Part shown: in pieces, positions 1 to 55,844 of the stretch
Layout of the letters: every line of letters starts with the position of its first letter
How positions within the stretch are numbered: position 1 is the stretch's first letter
Source: Psammoneis japonica
Taxonomy: Eukaryota
DNA length: 64,000 nucleotides
Direction: 5' to 3'
NCBI GenBank assembly: GCA_008632985.1
Contig: QPGO01000003.1
Location: 1-64,000, forward strand
The notes under the pieces: model-generated
What the model was told of the DNA's origin: nothing
Database searches by the model: none
Seen by the model: the letters and a program-made list of their open reading frames with translations, nothing else
Translations under genes and position numbers: made by a program

Positions 1-221
1 CCTGGTTTTTTAGCAGAGTGTGTCCGCACGCACTGGTGCATTGTGCAACGGGCCTGTTTTTTGGTGAGTGTGGCGAGAAGGGGACAAAAAAGGACGACGG
101 GCCAACAAAAGGCAAAAAGCAGTGACAGACACGCAAGCAATCTGGCAATGTTCAAAGCTGCCACTGCGGTCGTTGCAACAAATGCAGTGCTTTCAGAGCA
201 AAAAATTGTCGCCGAATCAGT

Positions 222-413
222 TCAAGCTCTCTTGTTGCACTGGAATGGGTGACAAAAAGGAGCTTTGATGCAATGATCCGAGGCAGCGCCGTTCTCAGAT
301 TTCAGGAACACCCACGGCCAGCACGGTGCAAGCCGACACCCATTCTGAGGACATTGTGTGAATGCAGAGGCACTGGAACAGTGTTCGTCATGATGGTGCT
401 TTCTGGCTTGGGA
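222..413 (+). pseudogene. Truncated partial copy of the P-loop NTPase gene, cut inside Walker A by a MITE end
   Basis: GTVFVMMVLSGLG (about 367-413) matches GAVFVVMAPSGLGKT at about 762-810. The sequence switches to the MITE terminus at 414. Confidence 0.6.
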
Positions 414-545
414 GACACATTCCAGGTCTAGTTGGGACCTCCCACTGCTGAGCTGTGACATCGACAGTTTTTTGAATCGCATCGCATGTCACGCGCACAC
501 ATTTCTACGTGATTTTGGCAAAATTTTGTGTCATTTTATAGCACA
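414..545. mobile_element. Eroded left-end fragment of the GAC...GTC MITE family
   Basis: gacacattccaggtctagttgggacctc...ctgtgaca...acatttctacgtg aligns with the left end of the element at 46752. Confidence 0.75.
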
Positions 546-643
546 ATTGTCAGGCGATCCATTCAACAACTTTTGACATTTTTTTCTTCTACAAGAATGG
601 CGTGGGGCATGCACATTGTCCAAAGCTTCAAGTGTGAACAGGG

Positions 644-1530
644 ATGCATGCACTGCAAACTTGGCCATTCATTTTGTGTCAAAGACAAACATGTCCATTG
701 ACCAGATTACGAACTGCAGAGCTCACATGCAGAATTCTGCAGGGCAAATGTCACAAAAAGAGAGGCTCTGGAGCAGTGTTCGTTGTGATGGCACCTTCTG
801 GCTTGGGAAAAACAACAGCTGCCAAGCAGTTTTTCCATCAGTTTGAGCAACGAACACAAGGCGTTGCAATTTGCTTGCAAGTTTCATCAATCATGGAGCC
901 TCATGTTTGCCCAATGCTTTTGGCCTTGGGCCTGAATCCTGCCAACCCGCCAAAGGGTTGGCTCAAATGCTGCATCAATTGTCTCCACAATGCAGGCAAT
1001 GACAAGCCAGATCAGCAAACCTGTTTGGTGCTCGACGATTTTGGTGGGACTGGGGAAGATGCAGAACTCATCATGGCACTCAAAAGCCAGGCACAAAATG
1101 CGAACACGCTGTGATCATTGCACTTGCCAGAGCCAAGGAAGACACAGATTTTTGCTGTCCCAAAATGATTTGGTGTCCACAATTCCCTTGTCAAATGCCT
1201 GCCCAGACTGTCAAAATCTGTTTCCGAACAGTGAATGGGCAAGCATGCACTCGGACACTCTGATGCACAAAATGTCAGCAAGACTTCAGCCACGCTTTGT
1301 CAAGGAATTCACAAGAGATCAAATTGAAAATGCCATCGATCAACATGTTGGAAGCCCCGCACCACAGCAGATGGACCAATTGGATCCTCCATCTGTGTGG
1401 CATGTGCTGGAAGCAGTTCTTTTGTCGCCCGCCAAACCCAGCTGGAATGTTGATGCAGCAGCCACTTTGTCAGGGGAGGGACCACTGGCAGAGAGTGGTG
1501 GTGGTTGTGCTCAGTGCATTGTTGTTTGGC
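644..1530 (+). pseudogene. Decayed P-loop NTPase (AAA-like) gene
   Basis: Walker A APSGLGKTT and Walker B LVLDD. It continues after a frameshift near 1110 and has no Tyr codons. Confidence 0.6.
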
Positions 1531-2799
1531 CGTGCACCTTTGGGTTGCAAGCACAGTTCAAAGGCCAGAGCCTGCAGATGAGCCAATGGCAACCACAGCT
1601 CCGCCACCTGCAGATGAGCTCTGACCATGCCCAAAAATTCAATGGCCACCAGTCAAACCACACCCACCGACATTGCCAACCCACAAGAGCCAACCACAAT
1701 CACAAAACAACAAAGTGCCATCTGAACATCCCACTGGCATGGGCGCACCACACACCATTGTCACAGCTGAGCCAACCATCACCACAATCACAGAAGGGCT
1801 GCCAACTCTTTTGCCAGCTGAAGAAACCAAAACATCAACTCCTGCTGTCACAGGAGCACAAGCACCAATCCTCAGCAACACCATCCATGGCACCAGCACC
1901 CTCTGCTGTGGATGGACAGCCTCTCATCATCATGTTGCCAGTGAGAGACACCCTGCTGGCAGTTGAGGAAGCCCAACCATGGAGCCAGAAGAGCCAGACA
2001 ATGGCACAAATCTGCCAATTGTGGCGCCAATGACACAAGCTCCTCCAGCCACTGCAGAAGAGCCAACAATGCAAGCTCTGGCCACTGCAGAGCCAAGAAC
2101 ATCACAAGCTCTGATTGCCATTGATGCAGGTCACACAAACCCATGTGAAGATGGCCAGAAAAAGCTGGCATGCTGCATCAAGTGCAGGGTGACACTGGGC
2201 AGTTTCCTCCATTGCCCGCTTGCCCTTGAGGCTTGAAACAAAAGCTCCGTCATTGTTCGTGGTGCACCAGGACTTCTTCAGCCAGCACAAGAGTGCTGCC
2301 ATGTCCACAGAAGTGTTTTCAGTGCACTGCCCACCTGCCAAACAGAAACTCAACACACCAAAAAACTCTGCTGAAGCAGAGCTGGTTCTTGGGATGGATG
2401 GCAGCATGCCGCCAGTGGTTTGGATCAGAAAGTTTCTGGAAAGGCTCACAGTCACTGACACAATGAAGTTTGCTGGGACAACTGGAGCGCAACACTTCTC
2501 AAGTGCAACAGCCATGCCTCCAGTGGGAGGAGAACACATCGTGTGGACATCTGCTGATGCTGCTGGTTTGTCATGGACCAAGAGTCAAAAAAGAAGACCC
2601 TTCTGAGGAGATGGTTGCTGATTTTTTTGCCAAGAAGCCCCTGTGCAGCAGCTTGTTGAAAAGGTTTGTGTGTTGGGCCTCTAGGATGGGGGGGAAGGAC
2701 CCCAAGCTCTCTGTGGTGGTGTGCTGGAACCCAGGCTCATGCCAGCACAGTGCAAAGCGCAGACTGTGTTGAAGACATGAGGCCTTGACAGCCACACCA

Positions 2800-3094
2800 G
2801 CCACACTCCAGCTCTGGCTGGGACCTCACACTGCTGTGCTGAGACATGAGAGAGCTTTTGTGACATGTGCCACCTCATACACACACTTCTGTGCAAGATC
2901 TTTTTTTGCAAATTTGTCCCATGCTGCCCCCTGTTTTGTGGAGGAGTGAGTTTGTGCATTTCGCAAAATTGCCTCTTTTTCTGTTGGCGATTGTTGGCAT
3001 GTTCGTCATTCTCAATTGTTTTGCTGCAGAGCTCACATGAAGCATTCTGTGGACCCATTGTCACATGGAGCCCTGTCCAGTGCCAGAGCATGCC
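2800..3094. mobile_element. Eroded MITE copy (about 295 bp) with 4-bp target-site duplication ACCA
   Basis: Both ends align to the termini of 46752-47145, and it shares the core ttcgcaaaattgcctctttttctgttggcgat. ACCA lies at 2796-2799 and 3095-3098. Confidence 0.8.
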
Positions 3095-5798
3095 ACCACA
3101 GCATCAAAAGATCTTTTTTCTTGGAAGAAGGAGAAGAAAGGGAGGGGGGGGAGAAGATCCAGAGGATCTTCTTGCTGTTGCAAGGAGGAAACCACAAGCT
3201 GACAATGGCGGACCATCTTTGACAAATGCCCTTCTTCAGCATGTCCCGTTGTTGCATCGATGCAGCCCTGGTGTGGCAAGCACAGAAGCTGCTCCTTGCT
3301 GTTTGTTTCACAGCTTTGTTTGTTTCACAGCTTTGGTGGACAAAAAGCACCCCACCAGCGCAGTCCAGCCAGCACATGTGCATGTTTTGCCAAGTGGAGG
3401 AATTTGGCAAAGAGTCTCTTGTTTGGTTTTTCACCAGGCAAGAAGAATGACAATCAACAGCATTGTTGTTGTTGTTGTTGTTGTGACTGCAACCCCACAC
3501 AGTCCATTCGAAACCACGAGCGAGCGATCGAGCGAGCGAGCCGGTGGTCCCACCAAGTTCGTACGTCTACCGTCTACCGTTCACCATCCCTTGCACGTAC
3601 GCATCACGCACTTAGTTATTCGCCCATGGCGCTTGCTTGTTTGCCGTTCCATGTAGAAGACTCTGAAAGTGCTCTCTGCTGTTGCAATTGGTGTAAAGTC
3701 ACTTGATAGGTTTAAACTGTGGCTGGAGAGGATCATCTTCTGTAGAAGACTCTGACTAAAGAATAAAGAACACACCATGATGACAAACCAAGAAACAAAA
3801 CGCCAGACAACGACTCTAAACGGGGCTCCTCCCTTTTGCCGTTTAAAAATGTACGGAGAACACAAGCGAGCAGTCTCAGCTGTGGCCATGTCACCTCGAA
3901 ACGACAAGGAACATCCTCTCGTTGCCTCTGCGTCTGCCGATGGCACTGTCAAGATTTGGGATCTCAGTGATGGCAGCGGTGGTGGCAGCACTGTTGTCGG
4001 TTCTTTGGACAATAATGGCGACAATGTGCAAGCAGCCAATTCACAACTGGGAACCTCATTGCTTCCTTCACTGGTCCTGATGGGTCACTCGCGAGGTGTC
4101 AATGATGTGGCATGGTCGAAAACTGGAGATTATGTGGCTACAGCATCCGATGACAAGACGCTAAGGTTGTGGGATGTAAACACCGGAGAGGCTCTTGTTG
4201 AGTTTCGGGGGCATTTGAACTTTGTCTTTTGTACGAAATTCAATGCAGCCTTTAGCAACAATTTATTGGTAAGCGGAGGATTTGATGAGACTGTCAAACT
4301 ATGGGATGTTCGAACGGGTGATTGTGTATCGACTCTTCCGGCCCATTCCGATCCAGTCACGGGCGTTGACTTTAATCGCAAAATTGCCTCTTTTTCTGTT
4401 GGCGATTGTTGGCATGTTGTTCGTCATTCTCAATTGTTTTGCTGCAGAGCTCACATGAAGCATTCTGTGGACCCATTGTCACATGGAGCCCTGTCCAGTG
4501 CCAGAGCATGCCACCACAGCATCAAAAGATCTTTTTTCTTGGAAGAAGGAGAAGAAAGGGAGGGGGGGGGAGAAGATCCAGAGGATCTTCTTGCTGTTGC
4601 AAGGAGGAAACCACAAGCTGACAATGGCGGACCATCTTTGACAAATGCCCTTCTTCAGCATGTCCCGTTGTTGCATCGATGCAGCCCTGGTGTGGCAAGC
4701 ACAGAAGCTGCTCCTTGCTGTTTGTTTCACAGCTTTGTTTGTTTCACAGCTTTGGTGGACAAAAAGCACCCCACCAGCGCAGTCCAGCCAGCACATGTGC
4801 ATGTTTTGCCAAGTGGAGGAATTTGGCAAAGAGTCTCTTGTTTGGTTTTTCACCAGGCAAGAAGAATGACAATCAACAGCATTGTTGTTGTTGTTGTTGT
4901 TGTGACTGCAACCCCACACAGTCCATTCGAAACCACGAGCGAGCGATCGAGCGAGCGAGCCGGTGGTCCCACCAAGTTCGTACGTCTACCGTCTACCGTT
5001 CACCATCCCTTGCACGTACGCATCACGCACTTCGTTATTCGCCCATGGCGCTTGCTTGTTTGCCGTTCCATATAGAAGACTCTGAAAGTGCTCTCTACTG
5101 TTGCAATTGGTGTAAAGTCACTTGATAGGTTTAAACTGTGGCTGGAGAGGATCATCTTCTGTAGAAGACTCTGACTAAAGAATAAAGAACACACCATGAT
5201 GACAAACCAAGAAACAAAACGCCAGACAACGACTCTAAACGGGGCTCCTCCCTTTTGCCGTTTAAAAATGTACGGAGAACACAAGCGAGCAGTCTCAGCT
5301 GTGGCCATGTCACCTCGAAACGACAAGGAACATCCTCTCGTTGCCTCTGCGTCTGCCGATGGCACTGTCAAGATTTGGGATCTCAGTGATGGTAGCGGTG
5401 GTGGCAGCACTATTATCGGTTCTTTGGATAATAATAATAATAATATGCAAGCAGCCAATTCACAACTGGGAACCTCATTGCTTCCTTCACTGGTCCTGAT
5501 GGGTCACTCGCGAGGTATCAATGATGTGGCATGGTCGAAAACTGGAGATTATGTGGCTACAGCATCCGATGACAAGACGCTAAGGTTGTGGGATGTAAAT
5601 ACCGGAGAGGCTCTTGTTGAGTTTCGGGGGCATTTGAACTTTGTCTTTTGTACGAAATTCAATGCAGCCTTTAGCAACAATTTATTGGTAAGCGGAGGAT
5701 TTGATGAGACTGTCAAACTATGGGATGTTCGAACGGGTGATTGTGTATCGACTCTTCCGGCCCATTCCGATCCAGTCACGGGCGTTGACTTTAATCGC
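2961..5798 (+). repeat. Tandem duplication, two copies of about 1.42 kb (2961-4375 and 4376-5794), with TCGC microhomology
   Basis: Near-identical copies. TCGC occurs at 2961, 4376 and 5795. Confidence 0.95.
3777..4379 (+). pseudogene. WDR5: 3'-truncated duplicate of WDR5
   Basis: Same N-terminal WD40 repeats as the gene at 5196, ending at VDFNR at the duplication junction. Confidence 0.85.
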
Positions 5799-20031: not shown

Positions 20032-20440
20032 TATGTGTTCTCTGGAGTGCGCCGTAGTTAATAGCCTATTCTCTCTACCGGTATTAAAGACACAATGAGT
20101 TTCTTTGATACTATTACACAGGTAGCGGTAATGTTACATGAATACCTGGCAATCATTTCTCTCAGAAGAGAATCTCAAGAGAGCATAATAGCGAAATCGA
20201 CAATCAGCAACAACGCAACAACAAACGACAACGCACCTCGCACCCGCGCAAAAACACAAAAATAAAAAATTCAAATGATTTGGAAAGCACAATAGCTCAA
20301 ACAAGATCAAACTACCGAAGAACTGCGCTCTCGCTTGTTATTTCTGCGCTGCCTTCTGTCCAATGACGCTTTTGTGACCTGTTGTTTGTTCAATGACCTC
20401 TTTGTGACTCCCACTCATCCTATGATGTCCTTCTACGTAC

Positions 20441-21620
20441 GTTTTCGGCAGTCACAAGGCTCATGTCAAGAAACAAGAGGCATTCAACACGACGAGACAT
20501 GAGACACCGCCTGCCACTTCCTGCCGTCACTGTTGTGCGACTGCAAAAAAAACATGATCTGCCGTCTCCAATTTTGCCGAAATGGGGAAGAACCACACCG
20601 ACCAAATTGTCACTCCAAAAAAGGGGCACTGCAATGAAGAGCCCAGCATGAGCAGGACGATGCCGAGAATCCGAGGATGGATGATGAGAAATGTGAGCAG
20701 GAAGCGACTTGCGAAGCAAGCCGCCCAGCCAACGGGTCATCAAGAATGACCATCGTCAACAGCAAACCAACAAGCCCTTTTGGGACAAGTGTTCGTGAAC
20801 ATGATGACAACGAAAAGCAGCAAGAAGAGCAAAAAGAGGTGTCGAAGAAGAAGAAGCTCACCAAGACCATCAGCAAATGACTTCGATGCAGCAGATTCAA
20901 AAGTCGTGGATCGCAAAAGGTCACAAAGGCTTGAAATGAACAGAGAGTCAGCCAAACAAAGAAGAAGGAAACAGCGAAGGTCAGTCGCTGACCTGCAAGA
21001 AAGCAATTTGAAGCTCGAGTCTGAAAGCCGCCTCCTTCGAAGACAAAAACAGGAGCTGGCTGCTCAGTTGGCAAAAGCACAAAAAGCAGAGCAACGAGGT
21101 GCTGCACCCAGTGTGGCTGTGAGTCGACCTGAAGCTGGGGCCCTTGTGGACTCGTTCCCCTCACTGCCCGACTCAACTCAAAAGTCTGTTGCTGCTGCTC
21201 TCCGGACCAGAGATCGCCGGTGGCTTTTGTCGGTGATGCCACATCCAGAGAGTTGGGAGGACTTCTTGCAGCTGGGAACACTGGCTTGCACCATCCAGAA
21301 AGACTGCCTTCAGTGTCATTGACGAGAAATGCACTGTTGAGAGCGCCCCTTCCCGCCTCACCTCGAGCTGCACGTCTTTTTTCTGGGACACGCCCTGACA
21401 CTGCATCTGCCGAAGCAGTCGCATCGCTGCAAGAAGCTGCAAAGATGCGTCTTCTTCTTGAAGACCAAGCGCGACGGCAGCGTCAACGAGAGCTCTCTTC
21501 TTCTTTGGGCAACCCTCTGGGATTGATGGACAGGCATCGAATGAAAACGAGAGAGCTTCTTCGTGGATGCCAGGAGCATTCTCCAACGAGAAAGAAGGTG
21601 AGTGCATTGAGCATGATGCA
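20441..21620. other. TpA-free domain B (CpG retained)
   Basis: No TA seen in about 1180 bp while CG stays frequent. Confidence 0.95.
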
Positions 21621-22400
21621 TTAATGGTTTTGTGATTGTCCTCTGGTGTGCTTCAAATGATGAAATGTGCATGGTGATTTCGTTTCTAACTTTGTCTCTC
21701 ACGTTCGTCATTTGTTTTTGCTCATGCGATCTTCTTTGTTGGAAGATCGTGTGATTGAGGCCATTCTTCAGGAAAGGAAGAAAACGGCTTCTCCTACTTG
21801 TTCGAAGAGGGGCATCATCCGTCGCCTACTTCTTCGAGACGTACGACGAGTGTCTAGAATGATAACCTTGAAGAAATCTGTCAGCCACAAGGTCAAGGAT
21901 CTCTTGATGAGGGAGAATCCCCAGAAGACATCCTCCTGAAGAAGCAGGAGGAAGCTCGTTTGATTGAGGCAATTCTTCGGGAACGGCAAACAATGCCCAC
22001 TTCTTCTCAGCCATCGCCTGCTTCCTTGAGACGTAATACGAGTAGTCGGAATGATGACCCTGAAGAAATCCGACAGAGAGAAGGTGGAGAATCTCTCGAG
22101 GAGGGGGAAGAATCCCCGGAAGAAATTCTCCGTAAAAAACAGCAGGAAGCTCGTTTGATTGAGACAATTCTTTGGGAAAGACAAATAAAGATGGCGATTA
22201 CTCGTTGTTCACAGCAGCCGTCACCTACGTCTTCTAGACCTACGACCAGTGTGCAGGATGATGGTCATGAAGGGATCCTTCGAAAACAGCAGCAGCAGGG
22301 ATCTCTCAAAGAGGGAGAAACTGAGGCAGATAGAGGCTACTGAGGCAACAGCGGGAAGCTCGAAAGATGAAAGCCATTCGTCTTGAATGAGCACCATCGG
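20677..22400 (+). CDS. bZIP transcription factor, possibly pseudogenised; probable intron at about 21598-21745; repeated C-terminal exon
   Basis: KRSQRLEMNRESAKQRRRKQ followed by heptad leucines. GTGAGT donor and CTAAC branch site. The ARLIEAIL.ER unit repeats about every 200 bp. Confidence 0.7.
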
Positions 22401-30071: not shown

Positions 30072-30449
30072 GGGCGATTTAAAAAAATAGTTCCGTCAAA
30101 TGAAGAGTAGAGATGAAGAACAGCGGATCTCTGTGTATCGCATCAAGAAAAAGGAGGAGGGCAAATATGAAAAAATTGTGACTATCGAAATCTCAGAAGT
30201 GAGAAAATGTCCCATTTAGAATGACTTGAGCAGTGCCGGCCGAAAGAGCATCAGGCAGGTAGGCAGGGGCAATAATTTGAAACTGTGACTCCTTTTTTCT
30301 ATTATTTGTATCCGTGAGAGTCATCAACCACAGACACTTTGGACATCGAGAGGGTTACTGTAAATCCATTAACTGGTCGCTAACGACGGACCAAATTGCT
30401 CACATCATTGTGTGGCATGCTCTCACAGTTGTTTGATCAAATCTAGAAA

Positions 30450-31700
30450 AGCTTTGCCCATGCAGGCATTGAAATGGGATCTCATTGACTCATGAATCCA
30501 TCTCGCATCCAACGACATCAACTCCTTTTTGTCGCCGTGTTCTCGGCGTCAGTGTTGTGGGCCAAAGGCACAAATCCCTGTGTCGACGAGTGCGGGACAA
30601 AAGAGCGCTTCTGTGGAGAGACATCGTCAGAGTGCACCTTTGCTGTCAACTTGGGTGGTGACAGCTGCAATGACTTTTGTGGGCGACATGGGGGGCGATG
30701 CATCACCACCAAAGCTGCTGGAAGTTCCAGTTGCAACACAAAGGGCGCGAACTCTTGTTCTCATGGCTGCAAAAACAACGCGTGTGTGTGCTCACTTCAA
30801 GACGTCACCAAGGGAGGCAACCAGCCTCCGAAAGAAGAAGAGGCCAAAGTGACTGCTCTAACACCCTGTGTCAAACAGTGTGGTGAAGAAAGTTCACTGT
30901 GCGAAGAAACGTCGCAGCAACGTTCCTTTTGTGTTGTTTTGAAAAAAAGGAGTTGTGGTGACTTTTGCGAACAGCATGGCGGCACTTGCTTGGAAGCGCG
31001 GGTGGCATCGGAAGCTTCCTGCACAGCACGTGAAACCAACTCTGAGATGACTTTTGCGTTTGCACAAGAAACGAAGCGCATGCACCATCTCCCACCCCTG
31101 GTCCTGCACCACTTCCTGCGCCCTCTCCCACGCCGCAGTCACCTCCAGATCCGACTGGGCCACCTGCTCAGCTTCCGACATTTCAGCCAACAGAAAAATC
31201 AATGGATTGTGTCGACGTTCCACAAGGTTGGCATGACCCTGATGGCGAGATCTGCAATTGTGCTTGGCACAGTTTGGATGACAACTGCAAAGAATGAGGA
31301 GATTTCTTTGAAAATTTTGGAGCCACGGCGAGTGCAGCCTGCTGTGGATGCGGTGGAGGGAACCTTCTGTCAGTCGATGGGATTGCACAAACGCCATCCC
31401 CGACGCCACGGCCTTCGCCACTGCCGACAAGCAGCCCTGCCCTCTCTCCCACTGCAGCTGCACCAACAGCCAAGCCGACCGACTGCCCTGCCATGGAATC
31501 AACAGCCAAGCCGACGAAAGGACCAACACGGGTTCCAACGAAGGCGCCCTCATCCAATCCGACTGAATTCCCAACCCTGGAGCCATCAGCCAAGCCGACG
31601 CGAGGTCCAACACGAGTTCCGACATTGCCTCCCACGAGTTCAACTGTTTCACCGACACCAGTGCCAACGCTTGCTTTGACAACGCGTCCAACCTCGACCC
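30450..31700. other. TpA-free domain C covering the 5' half of the M64 gene (CpG retained)
   Basis: One TA (30859) seen in about 1250 bp. Confidence 0.95.
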
Positions 31701-33365
31701 CTACGAAGGGTCCGACTTTGACGCCATCAAATCCTCCTACTGCTCAAACACATGATCCGACGGTGCGTCCGACTTTAGCCCCAACTCTTTTGCCAACCGC
31801 AACGCAAACAACCAATCCTACAGTGAATCCCACACAGTCCCCTTTAGCATCAGCAACATCATCTCCGACCCAGAGATTGACGCCAGTTCCGAGTAGGAGA
31901 CCAACAGCCTTCTCATCAAACAATGACCCTCCCCGCGCTTATACGGCGTATCCCACTCTTGCGCCAACAAATGCACCCACGATCCTGATACCAATGGACG
32001 CCGGTGACGACGATATAAAAGGACAGGGTTCTTCAGAACCAGGATCCTTGAGTGTTGGTAGGGCGTGCTCGAAAAGTAATCAATGCAAGTCATCGACTTG
32101 TCGAAGTGGCGTTTGTATGGCGTCGCCGGCTTGCTATCCAATCAAACACACGTTTGGGAATCCATTCCACAAGAATAGATCAACATTGTGTTTGTTCCAT
32201 CCGCATTCGCTTCATTTGGTCATGATGCTTGGCATGATCACGTCAATAAGACATATGGATTCATGCAAAACTACAACATGTTTGCAGAAGATATCGACGA
32301 GCTCAACGTTTTTAGGGTGGATCCTTTGAATCTCGATGAGTCATTTTGTGCATTGGGATGTCAGGGATTCGACCGACTCTTGTGCTGCGACGTAAAACGT
32401 ACCCATGCGTTGGCCAGCAAGTGCTTCCCTGTCGGACCTAATCTTCAAACTGCTGTCATTCATAGCTCAAGGCAATATGGTGGTGCAGGATACACTAACG
32501 CAAACATTGCTACGGCGACAATGCATCCTGCCGCCCTCTCGTATTAGTACATGAGCTTGGTCACTCGCTCTTTGAGTTGACCGATGAGTACTCGTACGGA
32601 GAAGGAAGTGCCTTTGAGGCAAATTGTGATTCTAGCAGATCTTGCGAGAAATGGTCAGACCTCATGGAGGAAAATTACAGACCGAAAGGTTACGAAAGAG
32701 TGAAATGCATTCCAGGATGTGAGGATGGGTACTACTTTGTTGGAGGCAAGACATTCATGAATGACTTGAGCGCTCCCGTTGGAGCGGTCAATGAACGGTT
32801 TAGTTGCTGTACATACTTGCGTTGACGAAAAAGTTCCCTTCCTACTGTGATGTTTTTGATCCGTCCCCAAACTATCTCTTGAACTATTGCAAGAAGGATT
32901 ACCAAAACTATGGTGCCTCAAGCTACGAAAGTGAAGAGGTCCTTGCCATACCGGGGTACACAAACAATGACAAGGCCGACGCTAAATACATGAGAGTGGT
33001 AGATCCAGCAATGGTGACAATTACATCCACAACAAAGCGCTCGGGGTCACGGTATTCCGAACAAAAACATCTCAATTAGAAACTGGAATCTTTCCTACGT
33101 CTCAGGTCAAAGGCGACTTTGTTAATCCAAGAGCCGCAATGAAACAAGGAGTAGATTCCTTGTTGAAAGTCTTGGTCTTTTATACAAGAGGAAAAGACAC
33201 GCTGTTTTTTCAAGAAAAATAACCATTGAAATACCCCCGCCTCCTCCCAACAGCACAACATTACAAGGAGTCCCTCACAGTGTTTCCGATGAACCCAATG
33301 TTTTCGAGTTGGTCTTGGACACCAAAGGACGGGCTGTAAAGAAGATTCGTGTCAAGGCAATCTGA
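30492..33365 (+). CDS. Secreted Cys-rich / PT-repeat / peptidase M64-like metalloprotease; 5' half eroded, possibly a pseudogene
   Basis: YGGAG and HELGHS...LTDEY motifs. Paralog of 41442-45005. In-frame TGA near 31295. Confidence 0.75.
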
Positions 33366-35151: not shown

Positions 35152-35391
35152 GGTGCTAGTAGTAGTATGTTTGTTTGTTTCGAGTATAGTAGAACGATTA
35201 GAAGACGAACAACAGTGTGTACAACAGCACCAACAAACAAAGAGCCTCTCTTGGTGCTGACGCTGTGAACTGAGATTTTCGATCTTTTTCCACCTGCTTC
35301 CGACAACGTACATTTCTACGTGCTTCTGGTTGTCGTTCCAAACGTGTGGTGGATTGATTCTTCTCTGTTTGACTCGAACGGGCGACCGACC

Positions 35392-35480
35392 GACAGTCAG
35401 ACAGACAGACAGTCAGACAGACAGTCAGACAGACAGTCAGACAGACAGTCAGTCAGACAGTCAGACAGACAGTCAGACAC
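35392..35480 (+). repeat. 12-bp microsatellite (CAGTCAGACAGA)n
   Basis: About 7 units, directly visible. Confidence 0.95.
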
Positions 35481-36646
35481 GCACACCGACCTGCCATGCA
35501 TTGCATGTGCGTGTTCTTCACATCATGACAACACACAAAAAAGGGGTGAGCCGCAGCAGAGGCCCTCTGATGCTGTGCAGGTTGTTTGTCTCCAAACAAG
35601 AAGCAAAAGTGCCCAAACACCTCCTCCTCCTCCTTCTCTTCTTTTGTTGCCAGAGACTCTGCTTTTTGCGTTGCTCTGTGGTGGTGTGGCCAACTCTCCC
35701 GCTTTGTTTTGCAAAAGAGCATGCACAGCCACACTTGTTTTGCAACAAGATTTTTTTTTGCTGGACACATGTTGTTTTTGGCAGGTGACTTGGTTTTTTT
35801 TCAGACACTGCCCCAAACTTTGAGTGCTGCTGGCGCTGCCACACACTGGTGCTTGGCTCTCTCTCTCTGCACAGCAGGTTCTCTTGCCTTCTTCTTGCAC
35901 ACCACCACACACACACACAGGGCAGCCCAAAACATGATCAAATTGACAATGCAGCAAGAAGCAACAACGTCAACAAGAAAATGTTCAGCACACATCACAC
36001 GCAGCAGCAGGTGGCAGCAAAGCGGCGCTTTTCTGAGATGGTGTGCGTGAATTTCACAATTGAGCATGTGCACATGGGGTGATGTTTGCACAACAAATGT
36101 TGTGTCCAAGCAGTGCACAAATGTGAAATGACAACATTGGCACTGTCATGTGTGTGATGGGATTTTGGTTTGAGGTGGGGAGCAATGCACCAGACTTGGT
36201 CAATCATGGGGGGGGGGGCTGTGTGTCAAAAAGAGCTGGTGTGTTGCAAGTTTGTGAGCCAAATTGTCAAAATGCTGTGTCACGAACAAGCCCCAAACAC
36301 ACACTGTGTTTGTGTGCCATCATGTGAGATGTCCCATGTCTGACTGGATGTTTGTGTCCCCAATCATGTTGGCCAGCTGCACAACTGGCATGCAAGAAGA
36401 CTGCGCTCAAAACTGAGTTGCAGCATGATGATGCAAAAATGTGCACACAGCTGAAATCCCATCAACACCCATTTTGTTGGAAGGAGCCACACCCCACACT
36501 GGACTTGGCAAAGAAAGTGATGGAAGATCAAGAAAGTTAAAGGAGACACACACTGGAGAGCGCCAGACATGATGGGATGAAAGGGTGGCACAGCACTTGC
36601 ACACAAGCCAAGAGGTGGCACAGTGCTTGCACAATCCACAATGCAG

Positions 36647-44400: not shown

Positions 44401-45005
44401 CAGGTCTAAAGAATCACTCCAACGCTTTCCATCCCAGACGATGACATTGTCCGATGAAGAAGGCCCAGCTACGGATAAGATCATCTCATCCGATAAAGGA
44501 CTTGCCACCAAGTCGATTTGGTAATGGCTGTCACTTGTATTCGGCAATCGTATCTTTGACTCCATGCTCCAGGATCTGCCATCGAATGTTCGGTAGTGAA
44601 TTTCATCCGTATTCCCCTTGTGCCAAACCAGCATGGCCCTTCCCGTTAGAGATTCATAACGGATATCAAATGATGCCTGATACCATTCTGTTGCCCTGTA
44701 GTCCAAAGGAGAAAAGGGAAGGTCTTTCCATGTAACTCCGTCGTAAATTTGTGCTGTGACTCTTTGATCGATCGTAATTCCAACGACAATTGCTTCGTCC
44801 CGAGTTGGTGAGTAAGCCCCTTGATAACTTTCCATCGTGATCCAGTGCTTCTCATGCTGCCTGATTGAGAGAATCGTTCTCCATCCCAAACCGCGTAACC
44901 TGGCGTACTGCCACTGTTTGCCCAAATGGCCAAGTCCTGTGCAGATGCAAACGCCAACGCCAGGAAAGCAACGGCGTGATTCAAGACTGGAGAGAAGTGC
45001 TTCAT
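41442..45005 (-). CDS. Secreted protein with WDG-repeat (propeller-like) domain, PT repeats and peptidase M64-like domain
   Basis: Signal peptide MKHFSP...ASAQ, repeated (W/Y/F)DGxxW units, YGGAG and LVHELGHSLFELTDEY. Confidence 0.85.
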
Positions 45006-46629
45006 GGTGTTTACTTATTTCTCCTCTGCCTCTGTTGCAATAATTTTGGTTGAATCGATGTGAAGAGTTTGTTGGCGGCGGATCGAGAGCGAGGGTGGCG
45101 GAAGCTGAGAAATGAGTGAGTGCGAGAAACACTTTGATTTGGTGACTGGCACATAAAAAGATTAGATATAAGCCCAATGCCCGTGGACATTTTGGACGAC
45201 TTAGACATTCTACTCGCGTCATCCATCATCCTTGATCCGGAATGACTGTAAATCATTCAAAGTGTTTAGCATGCACCCATTTATTCAAGGATCTGCACTG
45301 TGCTTCATTCTGGGGCCAGACAAAATCTGCACCTGTCCTGGATGGAAATAAATCTCAATCAGTGCCCCATCTGTCTCTCCCCCTCTTTTCATCGCAGGTG
45401 TGTGCAGAGGACAGCACCGTGTCTCCCTGACTGGACGGTGCCAAGTTGAGGGCACGGGAGGTTTTTTTTCAAAGGTCGTGCAATTTGCCAAGTTCTCGCA
45501 AAATGGCCACAGTTCTGGCAGGCTCAACGAAAATGTGTGCTTTACAAAATTTGCACCTGGCAGCTTTGAAGGACATGTGCTCCACATGGTGGCGGCGCAA
45601 GTTGGGCGGTCTTTGAAGAGAGCCCCTCGATGCACTCACTCTTTGGTGCAACCCAGGCTGCTGGCATGGTCTTTGTGCATCCAATGTGCGCTGGTGCAGC
45701 AGAGAAAGGAGAGAGAAGACAGGTGGCATGCAAACTCAGATTTCTGCCCAGAAGAGCTGCAGATTTTGTCCAGCCCCCTTGTGGAGCACAACCACAGATC
45801 CTCAAATGGGGGGTGCAGATTTTCTGTGATGACCAGGGCGGCATGCAGCCACAAAGAGAGCAACAAATTGTTGGCAACAATGACACAATGGGTGAGCAGA
45901 GCAGTTGCTGCAATTTCTGAAAAAATGTCAAACTCTCTCATGGGCAGCTTCTTAGATGGCTCTCACACTCGCACACTTGGAAATGAGAAACGAGTGGTGT
46001 GCCATGTGCCCACACTGTTCCGGGCTGTCAACTGACAAATCGCACTGCAGCTGAAAGATCATTTTGTTGTTGACACACAGAAGAAGCTTGTTGTCATGGC
46101 ACACTTGCTTGCACATTGCCAGTGTGAATGATGGTTGGATGCACAGTTGCTCAACGTGCACATGCAACAGGTCATGAGAGCAGCGGTGCGATTGCCTCTC
46201 TGTGGCGCACATGCTGCTGGCAGCATCTGCAGTTTGCCAAAGAAGTCTGCAAACTGGGCCCATTTGGTTTGCAAAATGTGTTTGCAAACAGAGTGTTTGC
46301 AAGACACTGAAGTCTCCCAACTGGCTGCAAACAGCTTGCAAAGTGTCTGCAAACAAAAGAGCTCATCCAGTGGCTCGCAGCTCAAGCACACATGAGCCAC
46401 ATGTCAGACGTGTCTCTTGCCTGGCACCGCTGTCATCTTTTGATGTGTCTGAACATGTCTGCTCCATCGCATTGAAGAAGCACAACAACTTTCTCAGCAA
46501 TGACTTGAAACAGACTGGTGGGTGTGCCCCTTTTCACATGAAATGCGCAACCCAAGAAGAGGTGTTGGTCCTTTGGCTTTCAACTCATTTGCCCCAAGTG
46601 GAAGAAAACCTCAGTTGTGTGCATTGGTG

Positions 46630-48850
46630 TTGGAGCTTCATGGCTTGCCAGCTGGCACATGTCAAGTGTCGCCATCTCCTGGCTTGCTGCATGGCTTGCA
46701 AACATGTCAGCCTGATGCTGCCAGTTGTCATCGACATGTTGACCAGGTGCAGACGCGTTCCTGCTCTAGGTGGACCTCGTACTACTGAACTGTGACACAA
46801 TTATTTTTTATCATCCGTCGTATGTTTCGCACGTACATTTCTACGTGTTCTATTATAAAAAATTGTTCCACACTGCCTGTTTTGCGAAGCCAAAGGCTTT
46901 CTGTTATCTGCACTTATGTCAATAAAAATGCGCTGGGTATATTCTTTAATGTCTGAAGAACATACCCGCGCATGCTGTAAAGAATGTACTTCAAGTGTGG
47001 AGGAGGAGATACGTTCGCAAAATTGCCTCTTTTTCTGTTGGCGATCATTCATATGTGCATTGCTTAATAAATTTACTACAGAGCTCGCACGTAGAATTCT
47101 ACGGGCCCAATGTCACAAAAGTCCCACCTAGGACTGGAACCCGTCTGCAGAAGCTAAAAGGTGAGCACAAGACCAGCAACTCAACCCAAGTTGCGGAGCG
47201 TCAACTTGCCATGTTGTTCACAACTGTCAGTGCATCCTGTGCTGCAACTTTGTCTGTCCACCCTGCAACAACTGCCTCTTGTCCCAATGTTCCAACACAC
47301 ACTCCTTTGACAAGTTGTCAATCAATCGACCTTTTGCACATCAAGCACAGGAGGATGACACTTGGAAATCATGCCACCCAACACCATGCCAGCTGTTCCA
47401 TTGACTCTTGTGGTCCACATCATCTGACTCCACTGAAGAATGACTGCTGTCAGGACAATCCCTCCTTGTGTGTCTGACCTTGTTGCACTTCCAGCATGTG
47501 ATCTTCTTCTTGTCATTCTGCACAAAACTTGTGCCCTTGGGTCTCTTGTTGGTCGTGCACGTGTCAAACACCTGCAGCGGTGCTTCTTTGGCTGAGTTGG
47601 GGCACACATTGACCCCCAATGTGAGCTGGTGCCAACTCAGGTCCTTCAAGACATGGCAACACTCCTTGGCACCTTCCGCTGGCATTGCTGCTGATGACCA
47701 GCTCCTTTTTTTGCTCTGGGTGTCATCAACATCCTTGCCAAACCCATCTTCTTTCTTGGCGATTTCTTCTGGGATGATCCTGCCAGGGGATGCTTCCACC
47801 ATTTCAACCACACTGACAAACCAATCACAGCAGCATTGAAGTGCTTCTCTGTTGTCTTGATGAATGAGTGCCAACTGCTCCCAAGCCTTCATCGCCTGGA
47901 CACATGGGTTTGTTTGCTCATTTTTGCATCAAACAAAATTGACTTGAGAGTGCTCAGCAGTGCCACCATGTCCCACTCCTTTGTGACTCTCACAAGCTCT
48001 GCCACTCCTTCAAGCTTGTGACCAACAGCCTTTGCACATTGCCCCGCAATTGTGTCAAATGCCCTCACCTTCTGCACCTTGTGGATCACACTCTGCTTCA
48101 CACAGTGACCACATTTCTTGCCTCAGATCACCTTGTCCTTCTCCAATGCGGTGTCTTCTGTGATGGACAATCTGATTCTCCTGGCATGTGCTCCTGCCTT
48201 AGAGACAACAGCGCCTGCATTTTTGGCCTGAACATTCTTCTGACATGTTCAATGAGATCTTCCTCGTGGTTTCCATGCATCCATCTGCCTGTCTCGTCCC
48301 AACTCGGCAATGGTGTCATGCACCCAATCCTTCAAATCTTTCACACTTCCATGCCCAGCTGCAATCTGCCAACACAAGGTGTGCCTTTGGATTCCCACCA
48401 ACCTTCTGGTCTTTTTTTGGGTTCTCACGCACTTTCCAGGAGCCCTTGTCTCTGCAGGCTCCTCTCTCAACTTCTCTCAGCCCTTGTTCTGTTGACTCCT
48501 CTTGACTTCCCAGCCCTTGTTGAACAACAACACTCCTTTGAGCATCATGCCATGGCTTTTGGCTTCTGTGTTGGAGCTTCTTGGCTTGCCAGCTGGCACT
48601 CACATTTGGTCTCACTGTCTCCTGACTCACCGTGTGGCTTGCAAACACATCAGCTGATGCTGCCAGTTGTCATTGCAGCCATGTCAACTGGGTGCAGAAG
48701 CCAAAAAGTGAGCACAAGACCTGCAACTCAACCCGAGTTGCAAATGTAAACTTGCCACATTGTCCACAATCATCAGTGTGTCCTGCGCTGCAACTTTGTC
48801 TGTCTGTCCCATGAAAACTGCCTCTGACCCTGATGCTCCAACAACTGGGC
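46630..48850 (-). mobile_element. Decayed Ty1/copia-like retrotransposon remnant: gag region between two diverged direct repeats (46630-47300 excluding the MITE, and 48570-48850)
   Basis: Zinc knuckle CWKCNKVRHTRRDC, and gag-like segments IAGQC..KLE..DMVALL and LGVNVCP. The flanking direct repeats could be LTRs. Confidence 0.6.
46752..47145. mobile_element. Intact 394-bp non-autonomous TIR element (MITE) with 4-bp TSD TGCA
   Basis: Left end gacgcgttcctgctctaggtggac; right end reverse complement gacgggttccagtcctaggtgggac. TGCA at 46748-46751 and 47146-47149. The related repeat near 48690 shows the empty site. Confidence 0.9.
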
Positions 48851-50199
48851 AGGAAAAGTCCAAAAACAATGCAGGTGCAGCCACAGCTGCACATTCAAGG
48901 AGCACAGAGGAACAAAAAGCTGAGGCAGGATGTGGCGCTGATGAAAACTGATTGAGGTGCAATTGGCACTTCTTGCAGGCTTGAACTGGAAGAAGTTGAA
49001 GGCTGCATGACACACACACAACAGCAACAAAGTGGGGTCATCAGCTGTGGGACAAGAGCACCAGCAGCTCAGAGTCAGGAGGGTGGTTGAGGAGGGGGTT
49101 CTGTCAAGACTCCCACACAAAAGGAAGAGGCCTGGCTGCAGAGTGAAGACAGAGAATCAGCAGAAAAAGATTTTGGAGGTCTGTTCAAGAGGTGGGCAAA
49201 GAAGGAAACAGACTTGCAAAAAGTTTTTCCCCATGTGAGATTCTCCCCTGCAGAGCCAGCCCCCCATTCAAGATTTGACAAAATTTGTCTCAGGCAAGCC
49301 ATGTGTCAAAATCAAGAAAGAAGGCAGGAAACAAGTTGGTTTTGGCTTTCTTCTTACACACATGGAAGCCTGCCCTGCTCCAGGGGCAAAAATGTCATGC
49401 TCAATGCACAGAAAGCCTCACAAGTGCTGGTGCAGGTCATGATGCAGAAAACCACTTGTTGCAACAGATTGCAAAACACCCTTTTGTCCGATGATGAAGT
49501 CACCATGCTGGTCACACTTTGAGTGAATTGAGAGTTCATGGAACACATGAGGGAGCATCATCCAGTCTGTGGCACTGGCAGCAAAGTGCTGAAAAATCTG
49601 GTGCAGGAGCAGCACAGCACAAAAGACCAAACCCATTTGCAACAACAACCAGGAGCCTTGCTTTGCTCACTGCCTGCTTCCAAGGATCCATTTTCTTTTC
49701 CACCATCATGTCTGTTTCCTTGTGTTGACAAAATGGCAAAAAAGGGGCTAAAGTTGATGCCATTGTCCAGGCTGAGCTTTGCTTCTTCTTGCATCTTTGG
49801 GAGCTTGCTCATCAACAAATGTTTCATTGAGCACATTGCGAATCACTCATGCCAACATGTTGTTGAAAAAAATCCTTTGTGTCACATTCAAGAGCCTGCA
49901 TTCATGTGCTGGAACATCAAATTGTCTTTTGATTTGCGCATGAATGAGGCTGCAGGTTGCTCAAGGGAGAGCCAAGCTCTGGCTCTGCAGTGCCATTTGA
50001 CAATCAAGAATGACCAAGCCAGCCCTCAGTTTCAAACATGTGGGGGCACATGTGCACGAGGCCTTTCCATGATGTGTGCCCCTGCCAACATGTTTGAAAA
50101 TCATTGTGTTTTGTTGACTGTTCTTGAAAATGGTGCCAAAAGTTTGGGCCATGCATTTCATGCAAAAAATTCTTGGAAATGTGTGCCTGAGTCTAGAAC

Positions 50200-50730
50200 A
50201 AGCCACACTAGGAAAAATGCTGTGCTGGCATTTTTCCTGCCAAAGTTGTGGCAGCAAAAAGCAAGCAACACAAATCCAGCTGACTTGTGCAAACATTTTG
50301 GTGTGCAGCAGCATTTTATGGTGCAGTGTCAAGTTTTCAGATGTTGTGCTCAGCACTCCATTGAGCTGCACTGTGCATTGTGATGTGACTGAGAAATGAG
50401 GAGAAATGGTGCTGGCACATGACCTGCCAAAGTCATGGCAGCAAAGATGCAAATCTGACTGTCTTGCATTTCCATCAGCTCCAGAGGAGTGCAGCACTGA
50501 CTTTGGATGACACACTCAGCACTCCATTGAACCATGCCCCCCCTGCAATTTGGTTGAAAAATGCATGGAAAAGTGCAGTGTCAGCATTTTGCCTGCCAAA
50601 ACCATGTTGCCACAAAACACAAGCAGCACAAACTCAGCCATCTCATGCTTCTGTTGCTGCTGTGCACACAGCAGCTTTGGGGCACAGCACTGAGCTTTGG
50701 ATGCTGCACTTGGTGCTCTGTTCAGCATGT
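50200..50730 (+). repeat. Degenerate tandem repeat, about 3 units of 170-190 bp
   Basis: Recurring cctgccaaa and cagcactccattga segments. Confidence 0.5.
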
Positions 50731-53700
50731 TGCCATCTTGCCACAGCTTTGAAAAGCAGGGTTTGGATGAAATCTGATGAGAGCAGTGCATCATGATTTT
50801 TGAGAACCCAGGAATTGAGCCATTTGGATGAGCAGATTCTGATGAAAATGTGACATTCAAAATGATGGTGGACAGCACAGGACACACAAGCACTGTGGCC
50901 AGCCAACCAAAGCTTCAGTGTGTGCCTCAGGACACTTTGCTTGTCACCTCTTGCTTTTTGCCTTGCACATTTGAGAACCAAGAATCAAGCCCCAAACCTC
51001 GTCATTCTTTTTTTCAGCAAAGAAGCACTCATCTGTGCCACCACTGGCGAGCTTCATTTTTGCAACAAGAAGCTGTGCACACAACAAAATGTGATCTCAT
51101 CTTGTGACAACCAAAAGATGGTGGCAGATTGGGCCTGTGCTTTTCATTCACACATTTCTCATTTTGCAAATCATGATGGCTGGTGGGGAATCCATGGAGA
51201 GGGGGGACATGTGCGCGCTCCTTTCAGGGCAAGTCTCTTGCACTTCACACACTTGTTTGCAAGCTGTGGGTTTGCAGCACCAAAGCTGGTTCAATGGCAA
51301 ACACAACTGCTTTGCTGCTGCAACAAGAAACAGGTGTGTTTGCTGCTTTGCAGCTGACAAACTGTGCTTTGCAAAAATGGCTTGTGTTGGAAAAACCTTT
51401 GCAAAAAACCGCAAACCAAAACACGGTTGTGCAGCAAAATCCAGAGTCCACTGAGGAACACTCAAGGTTGTTGTCACAGATTCGACACCTCTCCAAGTTC
51501 ACAATGTGGTATGAAGTGCATTGCAAAGTCCATGGCAAAATCACACTGACGCACAAACAGTCCAAAGACAAACTGACACGCGAGTGAGCATCGTCATTGT
51601 TGGCGACCTCACTGCGACACACTTGCTCTCTTTTCTCTCTCTGACAAAAGAGTCCGCTCTCTCAACATGTCTCGTTCCAACCAAAGATGATGATGCTTCC
51701 ACTCAAACAACTGAGAAGCAAAGGCAGGCACCTTTTTTGACATGTAGCTGCCTGCCGAATCCCATGAACTGTCTGGCATCCTGCTGGGCATGATGCGCGC
51801 AGTGCGCGGTGACATGAGCGATTTTTCGCGCGCGCCGCAAACACAACAGACATACACAACATGATGATTTTTTTCAGAGCGACAATGATGGCTTGCGTCG
51901 CTTATTGCACCGTCGCCTTTGATTCTTTATAGTACAAGGTAACACACTCATAAGATTATATCTCTATTCGTTCATATGATGCATATGCGTTAGCTCTGTC
52001 TCGATAATTACCGTGAGACTTACAGAGACTGTTTCAATGCCGTGACGCGCTGTTGTTGCTGTTTTGATTTTTTGTTTTTACATGTGCTCCCGTCGATCCT
52101 CTCATAGTTTCTATTTGTCGCAATGTTGCATCATTGTTTCATAGGCGGCATGGAACAATGTCCATGTAAGCACCATTTCGGTTTTTCCCTTGTTGTTCTC
52201 GAGGTTGGCGTTGCGCAATGTAAAAGCCATCATGGACAACCACCTTATGTTTCACAGGCACTGAAATACGATAGAGCCCTTGTTGTCGTTCAGGACACGC
52301 ATGTACATGTTTGACAATCGGAGTCAAGATACTCAGAGTCTCAATTAAGCAAATCACTCTTGTCGTGGCTTGCGTTGTCGTCATTTGTAAAGACAGTACG
52401 TACGATCCTTTTCGCAGTCGCTGCGTCACCAAAGGGCGGGCATTGACGACTCGCAGACGGCTGCGGGATGTACACGGAAAGAATTGCAACATGTGTAAGG
52501 TGGCATAGTGCTGGGAAGGTACATTATTGTTTCCGCCGTTTTGTGGGCCTTGTATTGCTTATCCATATTCTTTTGCTCATTCGGGATGGATACCGTCTCC
52601 GTTTGGTTATATGTTATCAAACTCGATGGTAAAGGAGAAACAGTAGTTGTCCTACATTGGGCCCGGTATCTTCGCAGGGCGGACGTTGCCAGCAGAATGA
52701 GGTATTCAACATTTTCTCTGAGCGTATGATTATTTTGTGGTGGGACTATTACGACTGTTGGTTTCTGGGAAAGAAATGAAGTGTAGGATTGTTCAATGCT
52801 GCCGATACTACTGTACCTACGACGACGTGGACGAGTATATCAACCAAGAGAGAGAGTTAGTGGTTGATTGTTGGTGGCTCGCCATGTCCCTTTTTCATGC
52901 CCTATGGTGACATTATGGCTTGGGAACGAATATACGTACTCAACCAATGTCTGGGCGAGAAAAAGTAGAAAGAAGAAGGAAGGAAACTCGCCCGACTGTC
53001 GGTTTCGCTGGTCTTTCGAGAGGTTTTGTTGAAGGAGAAGAGTGTACGATTACAGATACGGTATGCAAAGGTTCTCGCTACATGAATATGCATACGCTAA
53101 CAAGAATGCTTCAATGTGGAATAATACCGGTGTATTATATATTGATCCGTCTTATGTAAGTACTCGTGGACGACCTGTGTATTGCAGGAACCTCACTATA
53201 GTAGTTGTACACTCACAAATGTTTCTCCATTGAATGGCAATAAGGATACTGCAGTCGCATCGGCTATTACGGGTTTCGTCCACAAGCCCTACAATATCGC
53301 AAGAGTGTGCAATTGCGTTACCCTATCTCGGATTTACGGCCAAAGACTTGCTGCGAAGAATACGCCCCCTCTTGCCCATACTCGCGAGAATGACACTTGC
53401 GCAAAAGCAATAAGCCGTGGTGGTACTTGATGGGTATGCTCGTAAACTATGCAGGTTTCGATGCCGGCATGGCATGTGATCATGAGGAGGTCTGGATAAT
53501 TCGCCAATGTCGATTATCAACCAAAGTGTCGATTGCTCCTTGCGACTGTTGCAAAGGTGATATCATTTTGTGAATGCCCCGTACGCTACGACATCCGTCG
53601 TACGTCAATAATGTGGGGCATCTTCCGTATGTAGCTTGGCAGCCTGCATCTGCAACTAGATATGTTGGGTTTCAACAATTGTACAAGGAGGATTCAATTG

Positions 53701-55538: not shown

Positions 55539-55844
55539 GGTGAATTGTAATAACGCAATCGAGTTGACAGCGAAACGGGATTAATGAACGCATCAACAAA
55601 CAACGAACGATAGAGTGTGAGGAGCAGCTGCTGTACAAGACTCATCTGCGTGCGTTTGATCGACAATCGCTCAAAAATTTCGTTGATTGCCGGCGATACT
55701 TCACTCGAGCAAGCCGCTACAACGGGCAAGCGAAACGCTCCACTTGCACTTCTGTAGTCATACACCGGTACAGTATGGCTATCTCGCACCACACAACGTC
55801 AACCGTTACAAATCTATCCGCGGTATTCAAGGTGACTTGACAAG

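Follow-up and report, generated by a model that had tools for sequence, protein, structure and literature searches.

The closest described counterpart of the pattern reported here comes from mutation-accumulation lines of the chlorarachniophyte Bigelowiella natans, in which TpA>TpG/CpA hypermutation struck two integrated viral regions in a region-limited and episodic manner (bioRxiv 10.64898/2026.01.13.699255). The available part of that preprint also describes TpA-depleted, CpA+TpG-enriched clusters whose affected coding sequences are enriched in transposon domains, and its authors propose a DNA-acting ADAT2-like adenine deaminase as the candidate; in the same part, the text is silent on diatoms, on CpG and on miniature inverted-repeat transposable elements (MITEs) (bioRxiv 10.64898/2026.01.13.699255). 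Here we analyse a stretch of 64,000 nucleotides of the diatom Psammoneis japonica (assembly GCA_008632985.1, contig QPGO01000003.1, positions 1 to 64,000 of the forward strand; hereafter the window), in which a TA-rich MITE, copy A, sits inside a long domain that has almost no TA. This MITE makes a broader phenomenon visible: a saturating, TpA-specific, domain-limited hypermutation in a diatom.

As far as the available part of the preprint describes them, the changes in B. natans are almost only A>G/T>C, confined to TpA, found on both strands, regional, and patchy or episodic, and in the window we likewise found A>G/T>C changes, a TpA context, both strands affected and regional confinement, with one copy of a tandem duplication (copy 2) left untouched. 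Within the same limits, the two cases differ in host (a rhizarian chlorarachniophyte there, a diatom of the Stramenopila here), in targets (viral inserts there; here a long terminal repeat (LTR) retrotransposon, MITEs, units of gene size and a duplicated host-gene fragment) and in extent, since the hypermutable nucleocytoplasmic large DNA virus region of B. natans still holds 3.3% TpA, whereas here the process is saturated, leaving 0–1 TA per kb over kilobases; rates, moreover, were measured there and are inferred here. No viral insert or viral genes were seen in the window, and some open reading frames (ORFs) of its TA-free domains are of no recognisable origin.

Other known systems share parts of this pattern. 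[quoted passage not shown] With TpA removed (0.8 per 1000) and CpA/TpG enriched, RIP was rejected as the process acting here. In animals, retroelements and viruses are edited by ADAR, on double-stranded RNA, and by APOBEC, on single-stranded DNA, giving clustered transitions with a 5' U/T preference (ADAR-type) as a defence against mobile or foreign sequences; these enzymes, however, act with strand bias on RNA or replication intermediates, whereas the changes in the window are fixed in chromosomal DNA on both strands, including the tandem duplicate, which had no RNA intermediate. Finally, the CpG decay of methylated repeats resembles the way in which these repeat-rich domains lose CG to TG/CA (CG observed/expected ratio, o/e, 0.04–0.43), but it does not explain the loss of TA and is separable from it, both in two of the domains and in the tandem duplicate (12 TpA, 0 CpG), methylation itself being presumed only. 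In the literature covered, with subscription journals and bioRxiv supplements outside that coverage, we found no report of TpA hypermutation in diatoms or of A-to-G hypermutation of transposable elements, and the available part of the Cyclotella cryptica genome paper has nothing on TA depletion. TpA-specific DNA hypermutation is thus represented in that literature by a single 2026 preprint on one chlorarachniophyte, and what is new here is its occurrence in a diatom.

The original prediction for this DNA, made from the letters alone, described copy A as rich in TA and CG between nearly TA-free flanks, and both parts of this description were borne out. Copy A contains 29 TA and 19 CG in 394 bp, corresponding to a TA o/e of 0.89 and a CG o/e of 1.06–1.09, with neither CpA nor TpG depleted (CA o/e 1.06, TG o/e 1.31). 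The left flank (45544–46751) has 1 TA in 1,208 bp and the right flank (47146–48843) 3 in 1,698 bp, together 4 TA in 2,906 bp where the 42.4 TA per kb of the remaining window would predict about 123; the flank rate predicts 0.54 TA per 394 bp, giving a Poisson tail of 1e-39 for at least 29. The change in TA density coincides with the ends of copy A. All eight sequence strings by which the prediction had compared this copy with its siblings were found, the copy A forms at 46772, 47074, 47097 and 46752 and the eroded forms at 2821, 3022 (also 4440), 3045 (also 4463) and 414. Isolated TA dinucleotides occur inside the TA-free domain at 47155, 45953, 48200, 48747, 49355 and 49749. At 48747, 82% of the depth of other copies in contigs of sequencing run X1 has C, and 47155 is CA in the sister LTR, so that these isolated TA look like later ordinary C>T changes and not like survivors.

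Copy A combines terminal inverted repeats (TIRs), a target-site duplication with a known empty site, small size and a lack of coding capacity. Its inverted arms (46748–46773 and 47124–47149) are 26 nt long and 85% complementary, their outer 4 nt being the target duplication; a degenerate TIR pattern has 3 matches in the window versus 0.02 expected, and in the predicted fold the ends are paired in a long hairpin (z = -3.6). When the window was compared with itself, segments 46627–46756 and 47146–47297 proved contiguous in a paralog at 48568–48843, the sister LTR, which holds one TGCA versus a TGCA on each side of copy A. The empty site with its single TGCA identifies copy A as an insertion at 46752–47145 with a 4-bp target duplication. 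The same comparison confirmed the boundaries predicted for copy A; those of copy B (2800–3094) are supported by ACCA on both sides and the start of copy C at 414 also stands, its end being moved from 545 to about 770.

Among the sequencing runs listed, X1 alone contains this DNA, and no RNA run does. Contigs of run X1 stop at the ends of copy A, and among the records listed none spans the insertion or an empty allele. Their summed depth is 32,500–173,900 over copy A versus 55–76 on the unique left flank, a contig pile-up that points to a highly repeated family, the depth sum not being a copy number. The window itself has three MITE copies plus one duplicated fragment. A TIR-pattern search revealed no autonomous partner with the same ends within the window, and a metagenome scan with a 25-base MITE core returned 0 matches. 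The family therefore resembles MITEs in its TIRs, target duplication, small size, non-coding nature and probably high repetition, and departs from a textbook case in that its superfamily is not fixed by the 4-bp duplication (TGCA, ACCA) and in that the window lacks an autonomous partner. A 9-bp, Mutator-like duplication was rejected, as it requires a mismatch and the same first bases within it are common to four copies, and piggyBac was rejected because the target has no TTAA.

The DNA into which copy A inserted is, by its LTR pair, the termini of the LTRs and its repetition in reads, a small or truncated LTR retrotransposon. The two LTRs measure 272 bp (without the MITE) and 275 bp and have 7-nt inverted termini with TG...CA ends; the 5-bp flanks of the element, ATTGG (46623–46627) and ACTGG (48844–48848), match at four of five positions. 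The internal region of about 1.27 kb carries one CCHC knuckle below the Pfam cut-off as its coding signal, and Pfam found neither reverse transcriptase nor integrase in the ORFs of the element. In run X1 the retrotransposon is repeated (summed depth mostly 500–7,100) and 45000–46600 is single copy.

The LTR pair bears on the direction of change. An element integrates with two identical LTRs, and the present pair differs by 55 substitutions, comprising 46 transitions and 9 transversions. As many as 28 of these substitutions lie in 14 adjacent double differences in which CA in one LTR faces TG in the other, the remainder being CG versus TG/CA (5), TA versus CA (1), other transitions (12) and the 9 transversions; when the 46 transitions were placed at random, double differences averaged 1.9 and never exceeded 8 in 10,000 permutations. 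Because CA facing TG is what one change per LTR from a TA or CG ancestor produces, the 14 double differences indicate that the LTRs once had TA and CG at about normal density and that each lost them independently, in place and after integration. The 14 discordant sites correspond to an ancestral total of about 28 TA/CG sites over 272 bp, near the normal 95 per kb, and ordinary divergence between the LTRs amounts to about 8% (21 of 272 positions).

The domain around copy A is one of several. The window, with 48% G+C, is a mosaic of normal DNA and TA-free stretches, 16 of which are at least 350 bp long and merge into six domains with sharp edges (Table 1). Normal DNA has 42.4 TA and 53.1 CG per 1000 and TA-free DNA 0.8 and 20.4, while CA stands at 74.4 in normal and 114.9 in TA-free DNA and TG at 72.9 and 106.2, so that the loss of TA and CG together (74.3 per 1000) equals the gain of CA and TG (73.8 per 1000). 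An in-silico conversion of every TA and 65% of CG in normal DNA of the window yields CA 113 and TG 111. Each of the ten sub-domains has increases of CA and TG of similar size, showing that both strands were hit. CG o/e is 0.67–0.78 in two domains, 20439–21621 and 30445–31701, compared to the much lower values of the repeat-rich domains, which makes the loss of CpG separable from that of TA. These two domains have 0 and 1 TA, respectively, and each is roughly coextensive with an ORF, the one at 30489–31676 having a hydrophobic N-terminus and two Cys-rich repeats without any Tyr, followed by a PT repeat in another frame. The ORFs of TA-free domains in general lack tyrosine altogether, as expected if TAY codons were mutated and not from selection, and Pfam, run on 69 of them, gave weak hints only (AAA_22, E 1.9e-4; zf-CCHC, E 0.0084; PT repeat).

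As a background control only, and not as evidence of absence in other diatoms, we used 35 environmental loci with an orthologous UCH gene (342,600 bp), in which no TA-free stretch of at least 350 bp was found, such contigs rarely holding repeats; their longest TA-free runs, of 299 and 314 bp, are G+C-rich and have no excess of CA+TG. Run X1 contigs at a depth of about 52–57 match the TA-free flanks in the window with 0 to 6 differences over 262–848 bp, run X1 coverage being absent from the last bin, 48886–49000. At 45529–46376 the sole run X1 contig over a single-copy TA-free stretch has 6 differences, for which another haplotype or an assembly error is possible.

At the WDR5 gene, the process can be followed on a recent duplicate. 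A tandem duplication of 1,419 bp has its junction within MITE copy B and within a WDR5 exon, and its two copies differ by 15 substitutions, 14 of which are A>G or T>C when read from copy 2 to copy 1, 13 of these at TpA. Twelve of the 39 TpA of copy 2 are changed in copy 1 (to TG in seven cases, CA in four and CG in one), and none of its 40 CpG shows a transition; compared the other way round, copy 2 has TA at 27 of the 28 places where copy 1 has it. Besides the TpA changes there are two differences between the copies. The changes are clustered, affecting nine of ten consecutive TpA in 5393–5444, and five of the copy 1 changes fall in a single A/T-only decamer of copy 2 (4017–4022 vs 5436–5441), including both bases of one TpA, which creates a new CpG, and one A>G outside TpA; this clustering suggests processive action. 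With 12 TpA lost and no CpG changed, CpG loss would be a different process. On this evidence copy 1 is the process partway, acting in place after duplication on ordinary host DNA that lies between two TA-free blocks. Protein fit was tried as a test of direction and rejected as too weak, a generic WD40 model preferring copy 1 by 0.7 bits.

That TA loss is acquired and not an intrinsic composition, as the original prediction had proposed, is thus upheld by the LTR double differences, by the conversion of 12 of 39 TpA in tandem copy 1 and by the balance between TA+CG lost and CA+TG gained.

The sibling MITEs show graded stages of the same loss. Copy A has 29 TA (o/e 0.89), copy C 6 (o/e 0.22) and copy B 1 (o/e 0.05), with an o/e of 0–0.03 in their flanks, and copy C alone accounts for six of the nine TA in 1–3561. 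Summing the alignments of copy A with B and with C, 35 TA sites of copy A are aligned, of which 23 are TG or CA in the sibling, 2 are kept and 10 are otherwise changed; the corresponding figures for the 26 aligned CG sites are 19, 5 and 2, and neither sibling has TA at any of the 62 aligned TG/CA sites of copy A. At 3 of the 12 sites resolved in both siblings (46816, 46856, 47102), B has TG where C has CA, for which a TA or CG ancestor is needed, and loose-end consensus strings of other copies in run X1 still have TA and CG. These sites and strings, together with the lack of CpA, TpG or CpG depletion in copy A, point to a TA-bearing ancestor of the family. Calling copy A pristine, on the other hand, holds in a relative sense only: among 40 of 565 difference rows, at least five of its positions (46969, 47011, 47068, 47071, 47080) differ from most run X1 depth, which suggests that copy A has undergone a few C:G>T:A changes of its own. 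Copy C lies between 54-bp direct repeats (366–419 and 761–814, 83% identity), far longer than the 4-bp duplications of A and B. The 54-bp repeat belongs to a P-loop NTPase-like frame with a Walker A motif just downstream (AAA_22, E 1.9e-4).

The explanation that we favour, with considerable confidence, is that a young MITE, a non-autonomous DNA transposon, inserted into an old, small LTR retrotransposon after regional TpA hypermutation of about 6 kb around it. At the locus of copy A, integration of the retrotransposon came first; its TpA was then erased to saturation, with most CpG decayed and about 8% ordinary LTR divergence accumulated, and the MITE arrived last and has lost no TA since. Free of hypermutation, copy A would be younger than the last such event at its locus. 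At the locus of MITE B, the element and its surroundings turned TA-free before the tandem duplication, after which hypermutation started again on the sandwiched copy. The process therefore appears to be recent or ongoing in this genome, and locus-specific. The prediction that copy A arrived after the last mutagenic episode consequently holds for the domain 45544–51509, as indicated by the empty site in the sister LTR and the shift in TA density at the ends of the element, and for that domain only, the process having been recently active elsewhere in the window.

Mechanistically, a regional, strand-symmetric hypermutation converts TpA to TpG or CpA until essentially no TA is left. Its dinucleotide context, direction, strand symmetry and regional limits, its action in place after integration or duplication, and the succession of events are shown by the window itself, and the enzyme, its targeting signal and the cause of CpG loss are inferred. 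An adenine preceded by T would be deaminated enzymatically on either strand and read as G at the next replication, by a putative enzyme directed to silenced or foreign DNA domains and acting episodically. Adenine deamination at TpA is the most likely chemistry, and a DNA adenine deaminase is the probable enzyme; a modification directed at thymine and causing it to mispair with G is possible as well and would leave the same strand-symmetric pattern. CpG would be converted to TpG/CpA by a separate process, most likely the ordinary deamination of methylated CpG in silenced repeats, where methylation is presumed.

Among the alternatives, the one that survives best is that copy A is not young and was protected through hypermutation episodes by its hairpin, by chromatin or by a lack of transcription. 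Copy A does fold into a long hairpin, nothing in the window dates it directly, and recent hypermutation at another locus of the window would require a very young age if the whole domain were still targeted. The erosion of copies B and C (TA o/e 0.05 and 0.22), however, demonstrates that membership of the family confers no immunity, the shift in TA density coincides with the element ends, and the surrounding domain has no TA left and so cannot reveal continued targeting. We therefore regard protection as unlikely and do not favour it over a late insertion.

Much less probable still is a reversed direction, in which the family is natively TA-poor and the TA of copy A arose through C>T/G>A changes at CpA/TpG, in the manner of fungal RIP. 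In its favour, most run X1 depth has G or C at 47011, 47068 and 47080 where copy A has A or T, and one loose-end consensus has TG at 47077–78, all of these sites being C:G>T:A in copy A. Such a history, however, should have depleted CpA and TpG, and copy A has a CA o/e of 1.06 and a TG o/e of 1.31; nor does RIP make CpG, of which copy A has an o/e of 1.06. The three sites with TG in B versus CA in C can be derived only from ancestral TA or CG, both dinucleotides persist in loose-end strings of other copies, and the LTR pair attests ancestral TA/CG in the surrounding DNA. That the TA-free domains are intrinsic, as foreign DNA or through selection against TA and never mutated in place, is barely credible: two of them are indeed gene-sized with open reading frames, but the 14 CA-versus-TG double differences separate LTRs that were once identical, a duplicate of host WDR5 DNA is losing TpA, and the absence of Tyr from domain ORFs is expected from mutation of TAY codons and not from selection. 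Equally remote is a sequencing or assembly artefact from miscalled modified bases in silenced DNA, since, although methylated motifs cause systematic transition errors with some base-callers, run X1 contigs (perhaps of the same sample) at a depth of about 52–57 reproduce the TA-free flanks, and the signature, which is clean and strand-symmetric, is missing from the MITE in mid-domain.

Several observations weigh against the late insertion of a young MITE into hypermutated DNA, or against parts of its support. Most run X1 depth differs from copy A at 47011 and 47068 (TG or CA instead of TA) and at 47080 (CG instead of CA), and one loose-end consensus of the run has TG at 47077–78, so a few of the TA of copy A may be private gains. 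Copies B and C have the same state at 9 of their 12 jointly resolved sites, where independent erosion predicts about half; they may thus not be independent erosions and perhaps descend from a common, already eroded ancestor. The simulated conversion leaves unexplained an ApT deficit (47 vs 65 per 1000) and a GpC surplus (79 vs 61) in the TA-free domains taken together (11,874 bp). The tandem duplication is read from the assembly only, one of its 14 transitions (4018) is off the TpA context, and its direction is argued from one state versus three outcomes and from an intact versus a truncated gene, the WDR5 profile favouring copy 2 by 1.1 bits (121.7 vs 120.6) with a weak fit. Run X1, finally, may be the assembly's own sample, and hence not independent support, and may have been used for polishing.

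Table 1. Features of the window that bear on TA loss and on MITE copy A
Feature	Coordinates	Strand	Description
TA-free domain	12..3561	.	Holds copies B, C and P-loop NTPase-like ORF (638–1111)
TA-free domain	4374–4980
TA-free domain, CpG near-normal (o/e 0.71), gene-sized	20439..21621	.	Weakly bZIP-like ORF 20750–21322 (bZIP_1 E 0.08, below cut-off)
TA-free domain, CpG near-normal (o/e 0.67–0.78)	30445..31701	.	Coextensive with ORF 30489–31676
TA-free, CpG-poor domain (CG o/e 0.30)	35318..36537	.
TA-free, CpG-poor domain	45544..51509	.	Contains retrotransposon and MITE A
MITE copy A	46752..47145	.	394 bp, 57.9% A+T, 29 TA and 19 CG, stops in all six frames
Left terminal inverted repeat, copy A	46752..46773	+	Inverted arms and TIR-pattern match
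Right terminal inverted repeat, copy A	47124..47145	-	Inverted arms and TIR-pattern match
Target-site duplication TGCA, left	46748..46751	.	Single TGCA in sister LTR at 48693–48696
Target-site duplication TGCA, right	47146..47149	.	Single TGCA in sister LTR
MITE copy B	2800..3094	+	Internal deletion, 1 TA; ACCA duplication at 2796–2799 and 3095–3098
MITE copy C	414..770	+	Partly eroded, 6 TA in 355 bp; right end approximate
Second copy of MITE B 3' part	4376..4483	+	Product of tandem duplication
Small LTR retrotransposon	46628–48843		LTR pair; MITE A inside LTR 1
LTR 1	46628..47297	-	Interrupted by MITE A; termini TGTTGGA...TCCAACA
LTR 2	48569..48843	-	Bears empty MITE target site
Gag-like ORF, one CCHC zinc knuckle	47344..47928	-	Weak zf-CCHC match, E 0.0084, 16.6 bits, cut-off 20.8
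Tandem duplication copy 1	2961..4379	+	TA-free DNA and truncated WDR5 5' part, 12/39 TpA lost
Tandem duplication copy 2	4376..5798	+	Continuous with rest of WDR5 gene; all 39 TpA kept

The genes of the window, with their long uninterrupted ORFs, are in keeping with a diatom origin. Named relatives of the UCH ORF score best in five diatoms, Discostella, Fragilariopsis, Phaeodactylum, Pseudo-nitzschia and Thalassiosira, the four weaker named ones being from nematodes; taxon searches with the M64-like ORF, a WD40 query and a cluster look-up yielded no informative names. An ORF at 53778–55580 on the minus strand encodes seven Helicase-associated (HA) domains from 201-bp internal repeats of 80–88% identity, and the HA-domain clusters found are commonest in Bacillariophyta; within this ORF, 54001–54500 is low in TA (4 per 500 bp). 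Inverted segmental duplications comprise a subtilase gene (27517–30031 vs 39946–37421, 86.7% identity) and an M64-peptidase-like gene (31760–33328 vs 43092–41489, 75.8%), and beyond the N-terminal end of each subtilase copy lies a TA-free domain, the two domains being mutually unalignable.

The window combines three natural experiments, an LTR pair, a young tandem duplication partway through the process and graded MITE copies, which together give the direction of change, its order and its separability from CpG decay without laboratory work. Transposon and gene history in diatom genomes may be blurred by this process, as homology search fails on such DNA (69 ORFs with almost no Pfam matches), and the finding opens the question of which deaminase acts on chromosomal TpA and what marks the domains. 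We also put forward, tentatively and as something that may well prove wrong, that diatoms possess an active, domain-targeted DNA adenine-deamination defence that would erase TpA from silenced DNA, still operating and guided by chromatin position instead of repetition or viral origin, the last element being suggested by the hits on single-copy DNA and on the sandwiched tandem copy only. If so, the open, tyrosine-free, Cys/His-enriched frames that it leaves could seed new genes, and erosion running from 0 to 100% would serve as an inbuilt clock by which transposon insertions could be put in order. A diatom that bears this signature in saturated form would turn TpA hypermutation into a wider trait of algae of the Stramenopila, Alveolata and Rhizaria (SAR), and would bring the process into a group with genetic tools.

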